Shown here in pieces: positions 22,668-27,817 of a stretch of 46,691 nt of DNA. This DNA is from Candidatus Omnitrophota bacterium (GTDB taxonomy: Bacteria > Omnitrophota > Gorgyraeia > JABMQH01). Location of the stretch: the NCBI GenBank assembly GCA_026387595.1, contig JAPLLL010000127.1, forward strand, positions 1 through 46,691, read 5' to 3'. The notes beneath the pieces were generated by a model. That model made no database searches. It was not told where the DNA came from and saw nothing but the letters and a program-made list of their open reading frames with translations. A program made the position numbers and the translations under genes. Each line of letters begins with the position of its first letter. Within the stretch, counting starts at the first letter, position 1.

Positions 22668-23462
22668 ATGCAAAGTACCCGCTCTCAAGTATTAACGAAA
22701 AAAAAGCCATATTATGTGGTAATTACGATTATCACTATATGGTCTTTTTTGTTTAATGCGATAACACCCGCTTCTGCGAATACATTACGGCCGCTGGCAA
22801 GGGCAGAGATAAGGATCCCCGCTATTAGCGCGAAACCGGGCGACTTTATAATTTTAGGCGAAGTTGCGTTGCGATTGCAAAAGAAAACAGGGGCGTGGGT
22901 CCTCGTTGGGCGTGGTGGCTATGAATATAAGCTTCATGAGGGCGCGAATATAATAGGCAAGGCTAACCCTAAAAAGGCGGAAAGTTATGAAAACCCCAAA
23001 GGCGGGCTGGATGTAGCGTTACTCGATACAACAAAAACAGTATCACACGTTCACACCGCTATCATTGTGGAGACAAGCTCGGTTAAAGTCTATAATCTTT
23101 CGAAAACCAACGAAACCATGGTCGGCAGATCAATTGCCGGAAGGCCTACGGATAAAGAGATAGATGATATCCTGGCCCGTGATTTGGCGGTAAAATTTTC
23201 GAAGGAATTGGTAGAAATCGACTTTAAAGACTGGAGTAGGCTCTCTGCGCTAAGGGCGATTGTTAATTATCTTACCATCCGTAAGAAAGTGCTGGGCCAC
23301 AAAAAGCCTAATGAAAAGGATATAATAGAACAGGCAAAAAAAATTATATTTGCCCGGCCAAAACCTGTCGTCGCTATTCCCAAAGGAGGGTTTGTTACTC
23401 ACGCCCTTTCATTTTTAGGGCTAACCGGCCGGGTAAGCAAAACCATTAAACAACAAATTTAA
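22668..23462 (+). CDS. Exported FHA-like domain protein (leader family member 1)
   Basis: Basic N-terminus plus hydrophobic segment ending PASA, LRPLARAE at 22785-22808, and a degenerate FHA (IIGKA..., VSHVHTAI, YNLSKTNETMVG). The N-terminal roughly 120 aa align with the next ORF. Confidence 0.6.
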   Translation: MQSTRSQVLTKKKPYYVVITIITIWSFLFNAITPASANTLRPLARAEIRIPAISAKPGDFIILGEVALRLQKKTGAWVLVGRGGYEYKLHEGANIIGKANPKKAESYENPKGGLDVALLDTTKTVSHVHTAIIVETSSVKVYNLSKTNETMVGRSIAGRPTDKEIDDILARDLAVKFSKELVEIDFKDWSRLSALRAIVNYLTIRKKVLGHKKPNEKDIIEQAKKIIFARPKPVVAIPKGGFVTHALSFLGLTGRVSKTIKQQI

Positions 23463-23468
23463 CTTTAT

Positions 23469-26400
23469 ATGAAAAATAGACCCGTAACCCTCATAGCGAT
23501 CTTGATGATCCTGGCCATGTCCCTCGGACCAGAGGCGTGGTCTTTGATTGGTCCTCGGGATGAATTTTCCAAATTCGCCCGCGAGAGAAAATTCTCGGGT
23601 ACTTTCGCGGGGGCCTCGGCCGGGCCTGCCCGACTCTGTGTGGCTAAATGGGCAGGCGGGCCGGATGAACTCAGGCCCTTAGCGGCAGGTGAAAGGGCTT
23701 CGGCTAGATTCGTAGCCGATGCACAGGCCGGGGATTATATCGTCCTCGGCAATGTCCCCCTTTACCTGGGCAAAAGCGAGAAAGGTGAATGGGCGATTAC
23801 AGATGCGTCGGGCCGCAGGTACGCCCTTAAGAGCGGCGTGATGAACACTGTAGGCCGTGGCCTTGAAACCAACGATGTAGCCCTGCCGGATACCCTCACC
23901 AATAAGGCGATCTCCCACCGGCATGCCGGTATCAGCATAGGTTACAACGCGGTAAAGATATACGACCTTGGATCCGCAAACGGCGTCGCAGTAAAAAGAA
24001 ATCCGTTAGACCCTGGTGATTTACCGATAGGAAAAGATAATATAAGCCGGGCGCTTGAGGACCGGTACCGCAGCGGGACAAGAGTTGTGTTAGCGGGAGA
24101 TTCCCACCCGTTTTTCAACATGTCCAAAAAGTGCGGCGAGCTGGCCGCGTCCCTGGGAGCTAGGAAGGCAATTACGCATCTGGGGCTGGAACTGCCGAAG
24201 GCATACCAGGAAGACCTGGATAAATTATTGCGGCATTGGCGGCTGCGGAATACGTGGAACAGGATAGACCTGGCTACCTACGCCGCCATATGCAGGTCTG
24301 ACGAAAAGATCGTCAGGTATATAACCCGGGCTTATGGCCCTTACCCCGCGGCATATTTCGGTATGCTTCAAGCTGCCTACGAAAACGGCGTCAAGGTGAC
24401 CGCTATCGACAACAGGATCACGGAAGAAGACCACGAAGGCCGCCAGAACGACGCCGGTATGCTTAAGAACATAGCCGAAGTGCTTAAACAGCCGGATGCG
24501 CGCATGCTGGTCTTTATAGGCGCGATGCACGCAAATAAAAACTCGGCGCCAGCCTATCCCGGTGACAGGCACCTCGGCGCCCTTCTTAAGGAAAAAATGC
24601 CCCAGGTAAAACCCTATTCGGTCTATCTCTGGGATAATGAGGCGGCAGAGGGTGATTTCCCGCTCCTGGGAAAAGGATTGGGAGCAAAGGGATTGCTGCA
24701 TTCGGATTTCCTGATGACGCTGAGCAACAGCACTGTTTTCGGGATGATGCCTGCCCGCCTTGGCAGGGGCCGTCTCGGAGACATGTATGATGCGGCCCTG
24801 CATGTCAGCGGGCCGTGGGTCTCATTCAAACCTGCGCAGGCCGGCGTAACGCTTTCCGAAAGGTTGGCGCGGCAGGACCTGAGGAATATTATTTCAGAAG
24901 AGGCAAGGGCGTTTTTATACAGGCAGATATCGCTTGATGTTAAAGATGTAGCGATCGGCTGCGAAAACGGAAAAGAGATATTTGGCAGGCTGCTTGGCGA
25001 GCACGAACCGGAATTGATAAATGCAGGTACCCAGACAGGCGGGCTGAGATCAAAGGTCGAAAAAATCCGCGTATATGACGGAGTCTATCTGTTGCTAAAC
25101 AGCTACGCCCAAGCTGGAAAACTAAATATTTTTGGCGCGGATCACGCTATTCTCAGCATAAACCCCGCAGGGTCTCACGTGATACTTGAGGCAGGCGGAA
25201 ATAAAATGGACCTGAGCGCATTCGAAGTTTTGGCCGCTCTCATGCTGCAACAGAAAGGCTCAGGCGGCATGGCGCATCTGGCAATGCCGTTCGCCTATAA
25301 TGCCAAAGATGAAGCGGGGAATGACTATACCGTGTCAGGGGCCGCGATCTTTATCTATTACGACGGTCATATCCTCAGGTATAATTACGGATTTGCGGCA
25401 GGCGCAAAGAAGTGGGTATTGGAGAAATTTATAGACGGCAAAAAATCATCGCTGTTGGTGAAAAACGAGAACGGCCTGAACTTTGAAAAACTGCGACAAA
25501 AGGGCCCGGAAAAGGCGATAGCGTATTTGGATGGCCTGATAAACCCGGTTGAAAAAACAGTCAGGGTGGCAGTGGGAATTAATTTTATCGGCGAAAAGCC
25601 GGCTATTTTTAATGCGGATAGCCCGACTATTCAGAATATCCTGGAAAACAGGCAAAAGATCGAAGAAGCGCTGCGTATAGTTTATAAAGACAGCACCATC
25701 TCATTGGATGGCGTAAAGAATACAGAGGTAAGCTGGTGCGGCCTGGGGAATACTAAAGCTGTATATCACATGCGTTTTTTTACTGCCGGCGGCAGAGCAT
25801 TAGACTTGGCGTTGTCGGTATTTAAGGACAAAGAACGGCGCGACGAGGAATTAAGTAACATAGGGATAATCCAAAATGAAATGGCAGCTACTCCCGGGGA
25901 GGATATCGTACTGATGAAGGGCAGCCCTGTGGACGCTGAAACGGTACGTGTTTCCCCGAGTGGATTGGAGCTTAAACAAACGTACTATTGCACCTTGTCG
26001 GAATATGGCGGAGTTGACATAAAGCGTCTTTCAAATATATTGATCCAATTATTCGCCGGTGAGAAATTGGGCGAAGGGAATCTGTATAATCTGGTAAAGA
26101 TAGGCCTTATTACCGAGGAAGAAAGTTCAACGCTTAAGGACGATGCAAATGGGCTCGCTCAAATCGTGAAGGCGCGCATTAACCGGAGCGATATCGACAA
26201 TCTTATTGTCGATATCGAAAAGATGGGCATCGCGAAATATTTTGAACTTTATAAGAGGACAGCCGGCCGGGCTGTTGCGCTGGATCCGAAGCGGGACAAC
26301 GTGCTGATCAGGTATGACAGAAGTAACAATAAATGGGGTGCCAGATTGATAGATTTTGAACGCATACGGTCTTGTTCCGTCGGCGAATATATAGCGAGTT

Positions 26401-26690: not shown

Positions 26691-27592
26691 TGAAAAATAA
26701 ATTTAAAACCCTCATAGTAGTTTTAATGGTACTGGCCTTGGGCTGGTGCAGTTGCACGTCAGCGGGTACTTTCGTGCAACTGCCAGCTGGGCCGGATGAA
26801 TTGCCCCTCGCCCACGAATTATGGTTGCAAGAGGGCTTCGGGATAAATTCGCAGATGAAAAACGCGGCGAATTTGCGGCCGTTGGCGGCGGGGGAACGGC
26901 AACGAAAAGCGGTCAGCATTATGGATTTGAACAATTTTTTCGCTAAGCACGGAGTCAACACGTCCAGAGCAGAGGATACCTCTATGTATTCGCCGACGCC
27001 GCTGACAAGCCTGCTTGAGATATCCCGCAGAATCGAAGAAGCTCTCGGCAGGACCCTGGACGGCGCAAGTGGGCTAGATCTTGGGGCGGGAAAGGACCTG
27101 AGGGTTTCCCTGTTCATGATTAACCTTTGTGGCATGAATATGGCAGCGGTCGAAAAAGATCACTTTATTTCCGGAAGGGCCGCGGCGGTATTAAAAGGTG
27201 CGCGCGCGCAGGGCCTGGCAACCGATACTAATCCGGTTTTTTTGCCGGAAACCAATGTCTTTGACATTTCATGGAAAGAGTTTGACGTGGTCATGTTTTT
27301 CTATACACAACCGCATGACGAGGCCAAGGCCCAGGAATTCCGCGATATGATAGAGAAAAAAGCTGCGGAGATGAAACCGGGCAGCATACTGGCTTTTTGG
27401 TTTACACCGGCCCAGGTAATGTTTGCCTGGAGGCGTCTGTTCCCGCATCTCAAAGGCGTATATGACGAACCCGTAAGGATAATGGATCTGGAGCGGGACG
27501 TTTGCCTGATGGTATATCGGCCGCCGCAACAGCCTTCAACAGGCAGGGCCGCTGCGCCGGTAAATCCGGATTCGGCATTGAGCGCTATATGA
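26687..27592 (+). CDS. Exported class I SAM-methyltransferase-like protein (leader family member 3)
   Basis: The start overlaps the upstream stop (ATATGATGA). Hydrophobic N-terminus, GPDEL, LRPLAAGER at 26873-26899, the GLDLGAG motif-I-like segment, VEKD and FDVVMFF. Confidence 0.45.
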   Translation: MMKNKFKTLIVVLMVLALGWCSCTSAGTFVQLPAGPDELPLAHELWLQEGFGINSQMKNAANLRPLAAGERQRKAVSIMDLNNFFAKHGVNTSRAEDTSMYSPTPLTSLLEISRRIEEALGRTLDGASGLDLGAGKDLRVSLFMINLCGMNMAAVEKDHFISGRAAAVLKGARAQGLATDTNPVFLPETNVFDISWKEFDVVMFFYTQPHDEAKAQEFRDMIEKKAAEMKPGSILAFWFTPAQVMFAWRRLFPHLKGVYDEPVRIMDLERDVCLMVYRPPQQPSTGRAAAPVNPDSALSAI

Positions 27593-27817
27593 TGAAAAAT
27601 ATTCGCCGGAGGCGGATCCGCTATGAATAGCAGAAAGTTTGGTTTAAGCGGAAACTTTATAGCGATTTTAATGATCTCCCTCGGCCCTGAGGTATGGTCT
27701 TCCGCTGGTCCTCGGGATGAATTTCCATAATTCGGTCTCGATAGGAAATTCACTGGCCCTAGGCTGCAGCCCCGCGTCAGCGGGTACTTTCGCGGGGCAA
27801 GCCGAGCCGGGTGATAA
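27589..27817 (+). pseudogene. Decayed fourth copy of the leader module
   Basis: It begins with the same ATATGATGAAAAAT junction as 26684-26697. After frame breaks it reads FIAILMISLGPEVWSSAGPRDEFP*FGLDRKFTG (compare LIAILMILAMSLGPEAWSLIGPRDEFSKFARERKFSG in ORF 23469) and SAGTFAG, with in-frame stops and no downstream domain. Confidence 0.55.

Follow-up and report, generated by a model that had tools for sequence, protein, structure and literature searches.

The Omnitrophota are a widespread phylum of bacteria, most of them uncultured and many of ultra-small size, and are suspected of host-dependent or predatory lifestyles. Their giant proteins tile enzyme domains of a cytoplasmic type, such as methyltransferases and kinases, in polypeptides that bear signal peptides or transmembrane segments (bioRxiv 10.1101/2023.11.21.568195, 10.64898/2026.06.07.730766). 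Cleavage of these long proteins is suspected, the sites are unmapped and the question is explicitly left open (bioRxiv 10.1101/2023.11.21.568195); neither preprint mentions linker motifs. A cassette of three genes, open reading frames (ORFs) 1 to 3, on a Candidatus Omnitrophota contig (GenBank JAPLLL010000127.1, assembly GCA_026387595.1; 46,691 nucleotides, analysed whole and called the window below) resembles the giant proteins in phylum and in pairing exported-type proteins with cytoplasm-type enzymes. It differs in protein size (264-1434 amino acids in the family), in its layout as an operon of separate units, and in an explicit conserved delimiter, the peptide LRPLAAGE. The reading that we tentatively favour is that the cassette belongs to a rare, Omnitrophota-restricted family of Sec-exported modular effector-like enzymes, the units of which are bounded by a processing or sorting tag. 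Within this reading, we infer that the proteins are exported, that they are cleaved or sorted, and that they act on a target cell.

One parallel is the MARTX toxin of Vibrio vulnificus and its RRSP module (structures 6a8j and 5w6l), to which the TIKI-family domain of ORF2 is related with a profile E of 5e-8 and with the His and acidic residues kept. Like MARTX, P0019 and P0005, two homologues of the cassette proteins, line up different enzyme modules on a single exported polypeptide, with conserved inter-module junctions. Unlike MARTX, the cassette family is without RTX repeats, a cysteine protease domain or type I secretion genes, and no Pfam match to a MARTX hallmark was obtained for ORF1-3, P0005, P0006, P0019 or the other large ORFs of the window that were scanned. 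A Sec signal peptide is predicted here, and the junction is a strict motif of 8-9 residues rather than a loose linker with a Leu. The producer is an uncultured member of the Omnitrophota, and cleavage is putative. The Pseudomonas syringae type III effector HopBA1 (5t09, PF22079) is the best solved-structure relative of the TIKI domain of ORF2 and P0019. HopBA1 is a single-domain substrate of a type III secretion system and has no Sec signal, whereas no such system is present here and ORF2 adds FHA and kinase-like domains.

The MIX motif of type VI secretion effectors is a short conserved N-terminal signature of proteins with unrelated enzymatic cargo. LRPLAAGE is likewise shared over unrelated cargo, with signs of cassette turnover, but it stands after a Sec signal, is also found internally and at a C-terminus, and is much shorter; neither a type VI system nor immunity genes were seen. 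A conserved leader or tag, variable cargo and a decayed extra leader may also recall polymorphic toxins; no known trafficking domain or immunity-like small gene was found with them. Known superfamilies account for the component domains, and modular secreted effectors have precedents; what is new is the delimiter tag, the architecture of the units and the promoter shared by the family. The motif string was not found in the literature searched, and neither the tag nor the kinase-like family is covered by a model of Pfam, NCBIfam or PADLOC, in agreement with a first-pass annotation of the window that did not recognise the leader or the domain combination as a described system.

A peptide tag at unit boundaries

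The three genes are co-directional on the forward strand, as are all cassette features below, and are packed as tightly as the first-pass annotation stated. ORF1 (22668-23462, 264 amino acids) is followed after 6 nucleotides (nt) by ORF2 (23469-26690, 1073 amino acids, named FHA domain-containing protein by NCBI), which overlaps ORF3 (26687-27592, 301 amino acids, locus NTV07_06750) by 4 nt. The motif LRPLA(R/A)(A/G)E, described early on in all three genes, is in frame at 22785 in ORF1 (LRPLARAE, 22785-22808), 23670 in ORF2 and 26873 in ORF3 (LRPLAAGER, 26873-26899). Two of the genes also carry GPDEL. In ORF2 it begins at 23658, and the leader (23469-23696) comprises a predicted signal peptide (residues 1-24, ..AWS↓L, the arrow marking the cleavage point), a spacer and GPDE-LRPLAAGER (23658-23696). 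In ORF3 it begins at 26789, within a degenerate GPDEL-PLAHE (26789-26818). The only other LRPLA in frame in a real gene of the window is that of a PP-loop ATPase at 1027.

Homologues from other samples conserve the motif and fuse it to different cargo. The tag is kept in every LRPLA-bearing homologue, namely P0003, P0005, P0006 and P0019/P0033/P0034. After the signal peptide, P0003 reads ...DK-LRPLAADER, P0006 ...EI-LRPLSFGER and P0005 ..QE-LRPLAKLER, and P0005 has a further copy at residue 438 (..LESSV-LRPLAAGER). The ORF downstream of P0005 has an internal copy (..LETSI-LRPLAAGEK), and P0019, the start of which is extended in P0034, has four, at residues 50, 444 and 915 and in its last eight residues. 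N-terminal copies lie 2-45 residues after the signal peptide. The original description of the motif as a private N-terminal leader has to be given up, since P0019 and P0005 also carry it between domains and P0019 carries it at the C-terminus. Because of these internal and C-terminal positions, the motif behaves as a module delimiter.

P0005 and the ORF downstream of it are in the same frame, one TGA apart (contig L003, 1788-1862; ..IIKPM-stop-EGWYRG..IVMKTADCP..), and are thus probably one polyprotein, which when joined comprises at least 975 amino acids and three LRPLAAGE tags. Read-through, a nonsense mutation of recent date or an error of sequencing could account for the single TGA. Across 12 instances of the tag, codons differ synonymously at almost every position, which argues for selection on the peptide. 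Other exported proteins of the contig, namely an Omp85 protein, a LysM-amidase and a Gly-zipper protein, lack the tag, so it is not a general export signal.

The other end of the unit also has a regular form. The residue before an internal copy is always V or I, and the junctions of fused members run ...S-(V/I) directly into LRPLAAGE, whereas T, E, N, K or I stands before the N-terminal copies. Members encoded as genes of their own have Ile as the last residue, as seen in ORF1 (..KQQI), ORF2 (..LEQI), ORF3 (..LSAI), and P0003 and P0006 (..LSSI, ..VSCI); a C-terminal Ile is found in 1 of the 41 other predicted proteins of the window. In ORF2, ORF3 and P0003 the terminal ATA-TGA lies within a conserved overlapping junction with the next ATG, and ORF1 and P0006 end in ATT-TAA without overlap. 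The simplest description of a unit would be a start at LRPLAAGE(R/K) and an end in x-x-(I/V).

In the mechanism proposed here, each unit would start with LRPLAAGE(R/K) and end in ...[S/T/Q]-x-[I/V]. Separately encoded units would bring their own signal peptide and spacer ahead of the tag, and fused units (P0019; P0005 with its downstream ORF) would carry a signal peptide on the first unit only. After Sec export, the tag would act as a recognition site, for cleavage just upstream of its Leu and/or for onward sorting, with the TIKI hydrolase of ORF2 as a candidate processing enzyme. The cargo set of FHA phosphopeptide binders, RRSP/HopBA1-like TIKI hydrolase, and atypical kinase-like and methyltransferase-like enzymes would act outside the producer cytoplasm, most plausibly in or on another cell.

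Leader segments have also been copied within the cassette. The 15-nt junction ATATGATGAAAAATA at 26685, which holds the terminal Ile codon and stop of ORF2 and the start of ORF3, recurs identically at the stop of ORF3 (27587) and is followed there by 83 nt that are 77% identical to the 5' end of ORF2, with stops and a frameshift. The decayed fourth copy reported at first pass is therefore real and starts earlier than was thought; its gene start (27590-27815, ATGATGAAAAAT) overlaps the ORF3 stop. The related contig L002 has an ORF3 orthologue followed by an apparently intact gene start, MIKTRPI.., at the equivalent overlapping junction. ORF3 is like ORF2 in the signal peptide, GPDEL and LRPLAAGER only. 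With leader modules copied in front of different cargo and one of the copies in decay, the cassette appears to turn over. The 73-77% identity among the 5' ends of ORF2, ORF3 and the remnant, together with the identical 15-nt junction, would also suit a motif that is a functionless relic of a recent leader-segment duplication. This is very improbable and already largely refuted, because the motif is conserved although its flanks diverge, is found in different proteins of at least five samples with differing codons, takes internal and C-terminal positions unrelated to a leader, and follows in ORF1 a leader of another type, as in P0034.

A separate set of strings was observed on contig L001, where P0004, a partial homologue of ORF3, and its neighbours are without LRPLAAGE and have repeated [A/I/G/T]-S-S-P-[L/V/I/S] strings at their N-termini and between domains. 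The string TSSPSLEERK aligns with LRPLAAGERQRK, and the ORF3 tail AAAPVN resembles the P0004 linker ASSPVN. The SSP-type strings may be a lineage-specific variant of the LRPLAAGE delimiter.

Predicted export and enzyme cargo

Topology was judged from hydropathy and flank charge counts in seven LRPLA-bearing proteins, with cleavage sites placed by eye. All seven have a positively flanked N-terminal hydrophobic segment of 14-19 residues, and the net charge of +1 to +4 on the N-side and -2 to +1 on the C-side predicts an N-in/C-out orientation, as the first-pass annotation had argued from basic N-termini and the positive-inside rule. Candidate signal-peptidase sites with small residues at -3/-1 are ASA↓N, AWS↓L, TSA↓G, VGA↓A and ALA↓C. 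In ORF1-3 the segment is 15-19 residues long and its C-terminal flank is neutral or negative. A signal peptide or anchor is predicted at residues 1-37 of ORF1 (..PASA↓NT) and a signal peptide at residues 1-26 of ORF3. The apparent exception, the ORF downstream of P0005, is without a hydrophobic N-terminus and is in frame with P0005 across the single TGA. P0004 lacks both a hydrophobic N-terminus and the tag, so the two features go together. The cassette proteins are predicted to be exported or N-in anchored.

The N-terminal helix of ORF1, PYYVVITIITIWSFLF (22707-22757, residues 14-30), is 61% identical to the helix PYRVIIAVITIWSFLL of P0034 (L007 9996-10046). Conservation at this level is unusually high for a signal peptide and suggests a specific role, such as that of an anchor or recognition element. 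In the n-region of P0006 (L004 473-600), the hydrophobic stretch is preceded by YRRRVLEF, similar to a twin-arginine (Tat) motif; MMKNIRRRRI begins the decayed fourth gene, and other family members are without RR.

Were the segment instead an N-out anchor, the domains would face the producer cytoplasm as tethered signalling proteins, much as Ser/Thr protein kinase and FHA pairs do. FHA and kinase-like domains in one polypeptide are a classic pairing of bacterial Ser/Thr signalling, ATP and S-adenosylmethionine (SAM) are present in the cytoplasm, and the ORF3 homologue P0004 has no signal peptide. This orientation is nonetheless improbable, as the flank charges predict the reverse, AxA-type sites come after the helix (ASA↓N, AWS↓L, TSA↓G, ALA↓C), a hydrophobic region of 14-19 residues resembles that of a signal peptide, and P0004 also lacks the tag, which ties the tag to the hydrophobic N-terminus. 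The kinship with pairs such as M. tuberculosis FhaA/GarA extends to an ORF2 FHA domain that aligns to Rv0020c and GarA and to a kinase-like fold in the same polypeptide, but the ORF2 kinase-like domain is nearer the choline-kinase/APH type, has no Pfam kinase match and belongs to a protein with predicted export.

The paralogy of ORF1 and ORF2 that had been noted over some 120 N-terminal residues is clear: residues 38-155 of ORF1 and 66-178 of ORF2 are 36% identical (E 8e-14). This relationship and a weak YscD-FHA match, its only Pfam match (E 0.013), are the sole grounds on which ORF1 qualifies as an FHA protein. The FHA-like module (~22920-23132) has GK in place of GR and NE in place of NG and is thus degenerate, and the C-terminal ~100 residues of ORF1 have no Pfam match. 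Between the tag and the FHA core of ORF2, residues 83-135 (23715-23873; GDYIVLG..G.W) form a small repeat module that is also found in ORF1 and that matches 13 tandem repeats of P0007, a protein of 3743 amino acids (summed E 1.5e-12).

The FHA domain assigned to ORF2 at first pass (23847-24023, residues 127-185) scores above the gathering score of PF00498 (29.1 bits versus 20.7, E 1.3e-6). It aligns with the M. tuberculosis FHA structures 2lc1 and 3po8 (Rv0020c, GarA) and, from the alignment to Rv0020c, appears to keep the phosphothreonine-binding residues GR, SxxH and NG (VGRG, ISHRH, SANG).

The next domain (24081-24623, residues ~205-385) is a TIKI/ChaN/EreA-superfamily hydrolase. By itself it scores just below the Pfam cutoff (24.3-24.6 bits versus 27.7), and the ChaN/Tiki assignment was secured by a five-member family profile, which finds HopBA1 (5t09) in the PDB at E 1.8e-10, RRSP (6a8j/5w6l) at 5e-8, EreC at 0.012 and ChaN at 0.67. 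PF04187 matches four of the five members (best E 1.1e-21) and the HopBA1 family PF22079 two of them. RRSP is a TIKI-family endopeptidase with a catalytic 2His/2Glu set, E3900, H3902, E3930 and H4030 (PMC6254334). The putative equivalents in ORF2 are G-D-S-H, the E of LGLE and the H of G-A-M-H, with Asp in place of the first Glu in G-D-S-H, as in the GDEH of HopBA1. In the family alignment the E and the second His are invariant, and the first His is present in four of five members (Glu in P0020). As judged by profile comparison, the injected effectors HopBA1 and RRSP are the closest solved structures to this hydrolase, which strengthens the effector reading.

A middle region of ORF2 (24624-25625, residues ~386-719) has no Pfam or PDB sequence match. 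The protein-kinase-like domain that follows (25626-26612, residues ~720-1048) has a DPKRDN catalytic loop, IDFE and WxW..K.GFF, which in an alignment of eight sequences become D-P-x-R-x-N, D(F/Y)E and WxW..K.GFF, with D, N and D invariant. Its AlphaFold2 model (predicted local distance difference test, pLDDT, 77; predicted TM-score 0.78) retrieves choline kinase, EphA8, c-KIT and JAK2 from the PDB by Foldseek, with probability 0.99-1.0 and E ~2e-4 at TM-scores of only ~0.3. No kinase match was found in Pfam, NCBIfam or the PDB, apart from APH at E 0.42, and a PDB sequence search with the family profile found no match. The Lys after beta3 is present in ORF2 and P0006 and absent from P0005 and the distant members. 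The kinase-like fold first proposed from D-x-K-x-x-N and DFE thus has structural support, while the absence of a curated kinase match and the variable beta3 Lys make this an atypical kinase-like enzyme.

ORF3 has a class-I methyltransferase-like core (~26984-27421) marked by LDLGAGKD, AVEKD and FDVVMFFY. The Pfam model Methyltransf_23 gives 13 bits against a cutoff of 27 (E 0.086), the best PDB profile match is PRMT at E 0.25, and an AlphaFold2 model from a three-sequence input is of low confidence (pLDDT 44). Alignment to the Pfam-verified methyltransferase domain of P0004 reaches an hhalign probability of 73.5% across LDLGAGKD, AVEKD and FDVVM, and no homology to the methyltransferase domain of P0008 was detectable. 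The initial methyltransferase-like call keeps its motifs and this alignment and falls short of the Pfam cutoff; ORF3 is weakly supported as methyltransferase-like.

This cargo has also to be considered as a self-directed envelope module, in which the proteins would stay in the periplasm or on membranes to modify or sense the envelope of the cell that makes them, as by phosphorylation or methylation of a surface polymer, with the tag as a scaffold docking motif. The N-termini are of Sec type only, no secretion apparatus is present on the contig, choline kinase is the top structural match and IDFE is typical of small-molecule kinases; moreover, the C-terminal tag of P0019 suits a docking peptide and the distant relative P0008 is a polytopic membrane protein. 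We consider this account rather unlikely, because no periplasmic supply of ATP or SAM is known, an FHA domain with intact phosphothreonine-binding residues implies Ser/Thr phosphorylation chemistry, the TIKI domain is most closely related to injected effectors, and the Omp85, LysM-amidase and Gly-zipper proteins of the contig are without the tag.

Relatives, regulation and neighbouring genes

An exhaustive HMMER search with ORF2 against 1.84 billion representative proteins gave 29 matches in total, ORF2 included. These comprise the close kinase-domain homologues P0005 and P0006, six distant kinase-domain homologues, and four TIKI-domain relatives (P0019 and the weaker P0015, P0020 and P0025), the remainder being P0007 and generic FHA proteins. 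A word-indexed protein search with ORF2 returned only ORF2 itself. ORF3 has one orthologue, P0003 (57% identity), in addition to the partial P0004. The homologues are all metagenomic, and they belong to Omnitrophota wherever an organism is named (Omnitrophica for P0012). Among distant relatives, P0012 has TraB/ChaN-like and kinase-like domains, and P0008 has ChaN-like, kinase-like and methyltransferase domains in one polytopic protein in which transmembrane counting is too ambiguous to assign the domains to one side of the membrane.

Searches with the motif itself recovered little. A 12-row motif alignment found nothing at E <= 10 in the word-indexed protein search. A DNA-pattern scan of GTDB genomes for [VIM]LRPLAAGE gave at least 120 loci, of which the inspected matches were all due to chance, mostly in high-GC genomes, and no Omnitrophota were among the matches listed. 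When a stricter junction pattern was run on JGI metagenomes, the P0019 orthologue's contig was the only one recovered; L003 was missed, so either the family is rare or the JGI collection is incomplete.

Several regions of the homologues lack an assignment. Pfam finds nothing in units 1 and 3 of P0019 or in the first unit of the ORF downstream of P0005. A nucleotidyltransferase in P0019 unit 3 was considered and dropped for want of a Pfam match, and a JAB/MPN protease in P0019 unit 1 and the downstream ORF of L003, suggested by HxH...S..D strings, was rejected when Pfam, PDB and pairwise BLAST gave no support. Downstream of P0006, two genes of the prepilin type (N_methyl) are found within 3.5 kb (L004 2057-4301). 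As genes for type II/IV pili have been reported close to giant genes of Omnitrophota, a link to secretion is possible.

The family shares a promoter. A promoter scan and alignment with three homologous loci from other samples place the block at 22475-22523 of the window, with an A-rich UP-like element AAAAAGTTAGTTAGTT at 22475-22490, a -35 TTGCAA at 22495-22500, a 16-nt spacer and an extended -10 TGgTATACT ending at 22522. A common block, AAAAAG[YY]AG[W]TA[R][W]T (AAAAAGYYAGWTARWT), then TTGaCA, ~17 nt and (G)GTATACTT, lies upstream of ORF1, P0019, P0005 and P0006 in four different samples (window 22475-22523; L007 9825-9880; L003 136-190; L004 335-395). The A-rich pattern, which was derived from the same sequences in which its occurrences were counted, is present once in the window and once per family locus, always in the same position, and nowhere else in the ~80 kb of related sequence scanned; it could be a family-specific UP element or activator site. 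The recurrence of the block at four independent loci makes the regulatory region, which the first-pass annotation had credited to the cassette, look family-specific.

The 5' leader of ORF1, read from the sequence at 22524-22667, has a 4-codon mini-ORF, MHQY (ATG CAT CAG TAT TAG, 22566-22580), behind a perfect AAGGAGG (22556-22562). The mini-ORF overlaps a GCCTC/GAGGGC hairpin at 22580-22600, which is followed by T7 at 22605-22611, and leaders with a hairpin and U7 run are also found in the L003 (z -3.3) and L007 homologues. The arrangement looks like an attenuator, and no Rfam family matches it.

The rest of the contig around the cassette consists of housekeeping genes, as judged by Pfam scans of large ORFs, which upholds the earlier statement that the cassette interrupts such a context. 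MnmG is encoded upstream of the cassette; a ThyA-like gene, LysM-amidase, GuaA, PurL/Q/F, GreA and an Mbh/Mrp-type hydrogenase are encoded downstream, and other contig neighbours include the PP-loop ATPase, a CCA-adding enzyme, biotin synthesis genes, a GH57 branching enzyme and an Omp85 protein, the last of which indicates that the organism is diderm. The GC content of ORF1 (0.436), ORF2 (0.511) and ORF3 (0.521) differs little from the mean of the contig, 0.492.

Directly upstream of the cassette, a queG-like gene (21296-21925) has a TAA stop at 21728-21730, after which its 4Fe-4S part (CGTCKACVSACP...) runs on in a different frame; either the gene is a pseudogene with a frameshift or the assembly is in error there. 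A divergent 128-amino-acid ORF on the minus strand (21951-22337) has low GC (0.41) and no Pfam match, is not conserved beside homologous loci, and is of uncertain coding status. Just downstream (27969-28346), a secreted Gly/Ala-rich protein of 125 amino acids with a C-terminal Yae1_N-like GxxxG repeat has its own promoter-like site (27843-27871) and no LRPLAAGE tag; it is probably outside the cassette.

Some defence systems contain parts of the kinase, methyltransferase and FHA types. An insertion-like cassette with its own promoter, set among housekeeping genes beside a disrupted queG-like gene, could accordingly be taken for an anti-phage defence or toxin-antitoxin island. We regard this as scarcely credible, given that PADLOC has no match at E <= 0.01 for six family proteins, all members carry predicted export signals, there is no nuclease, ATPase or immunity-like partner, and the GC content is close to that of the contig.

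The exported effector reading and its meaning

Taken together, several lines of evidence lead us to prefer exported, tag-bounded effector units. The cargo chemistry needs ATP, SAM and phosphothreonine, the solved structures closest to the TIKI domain are injected effectors, and the leader cassettes show turnover. Omnitrophota are known to put cytoplasm-type enzymes in signal-peptide and transmembrane proteins with suspected cleavage, and TIKI, kinase-like and methyltransferase domains are found together again in P0008 and P0012.

Other points weigh against this preference. Secretion-system genes, an immunity gene and a dedicated protease are all absent from the 46.7-kb contig, and an exported kinase would be without ATP unless it reached another cell. 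The P1 residue ahead of N-terminal tags is variable, the C-terminal Ile signal may be partly a DNA-level one, given the conserved ATA-TGA/ATG junction, and P0019 ends in the tag itself, which suits a docking motif better than a cleavage site. ORF2 has no internal tag between its four domains, and the family comprises about six independent loci, so the statistics are thin. The original proposal of exported effectors delivered to another cell is partly supported, with its motif and its cytoplasm-type cargo borne out and the TIKI kinship adding weight, and is left without a secretion apparatus on the contig.

The cassette is a small and tractable case, with a boundary tag of 8-9 residues, defined cargo and a shared promoter, and one of its cargo domains is related to effectors that cleave host proteins. 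The tag is usable as a search profile to map module boundaries across Omnitrophota. It is conceivable, if rather doubtful, that the tag and the x-x-(I/V) end form the recognition code of a new Omnitrophota pathway that cuts or routes exported multi-enzyme polyproteins into effector modules. If so, the tag would be the first concrete cleavage or sorting site for the modular and giant proteins of this phylum.

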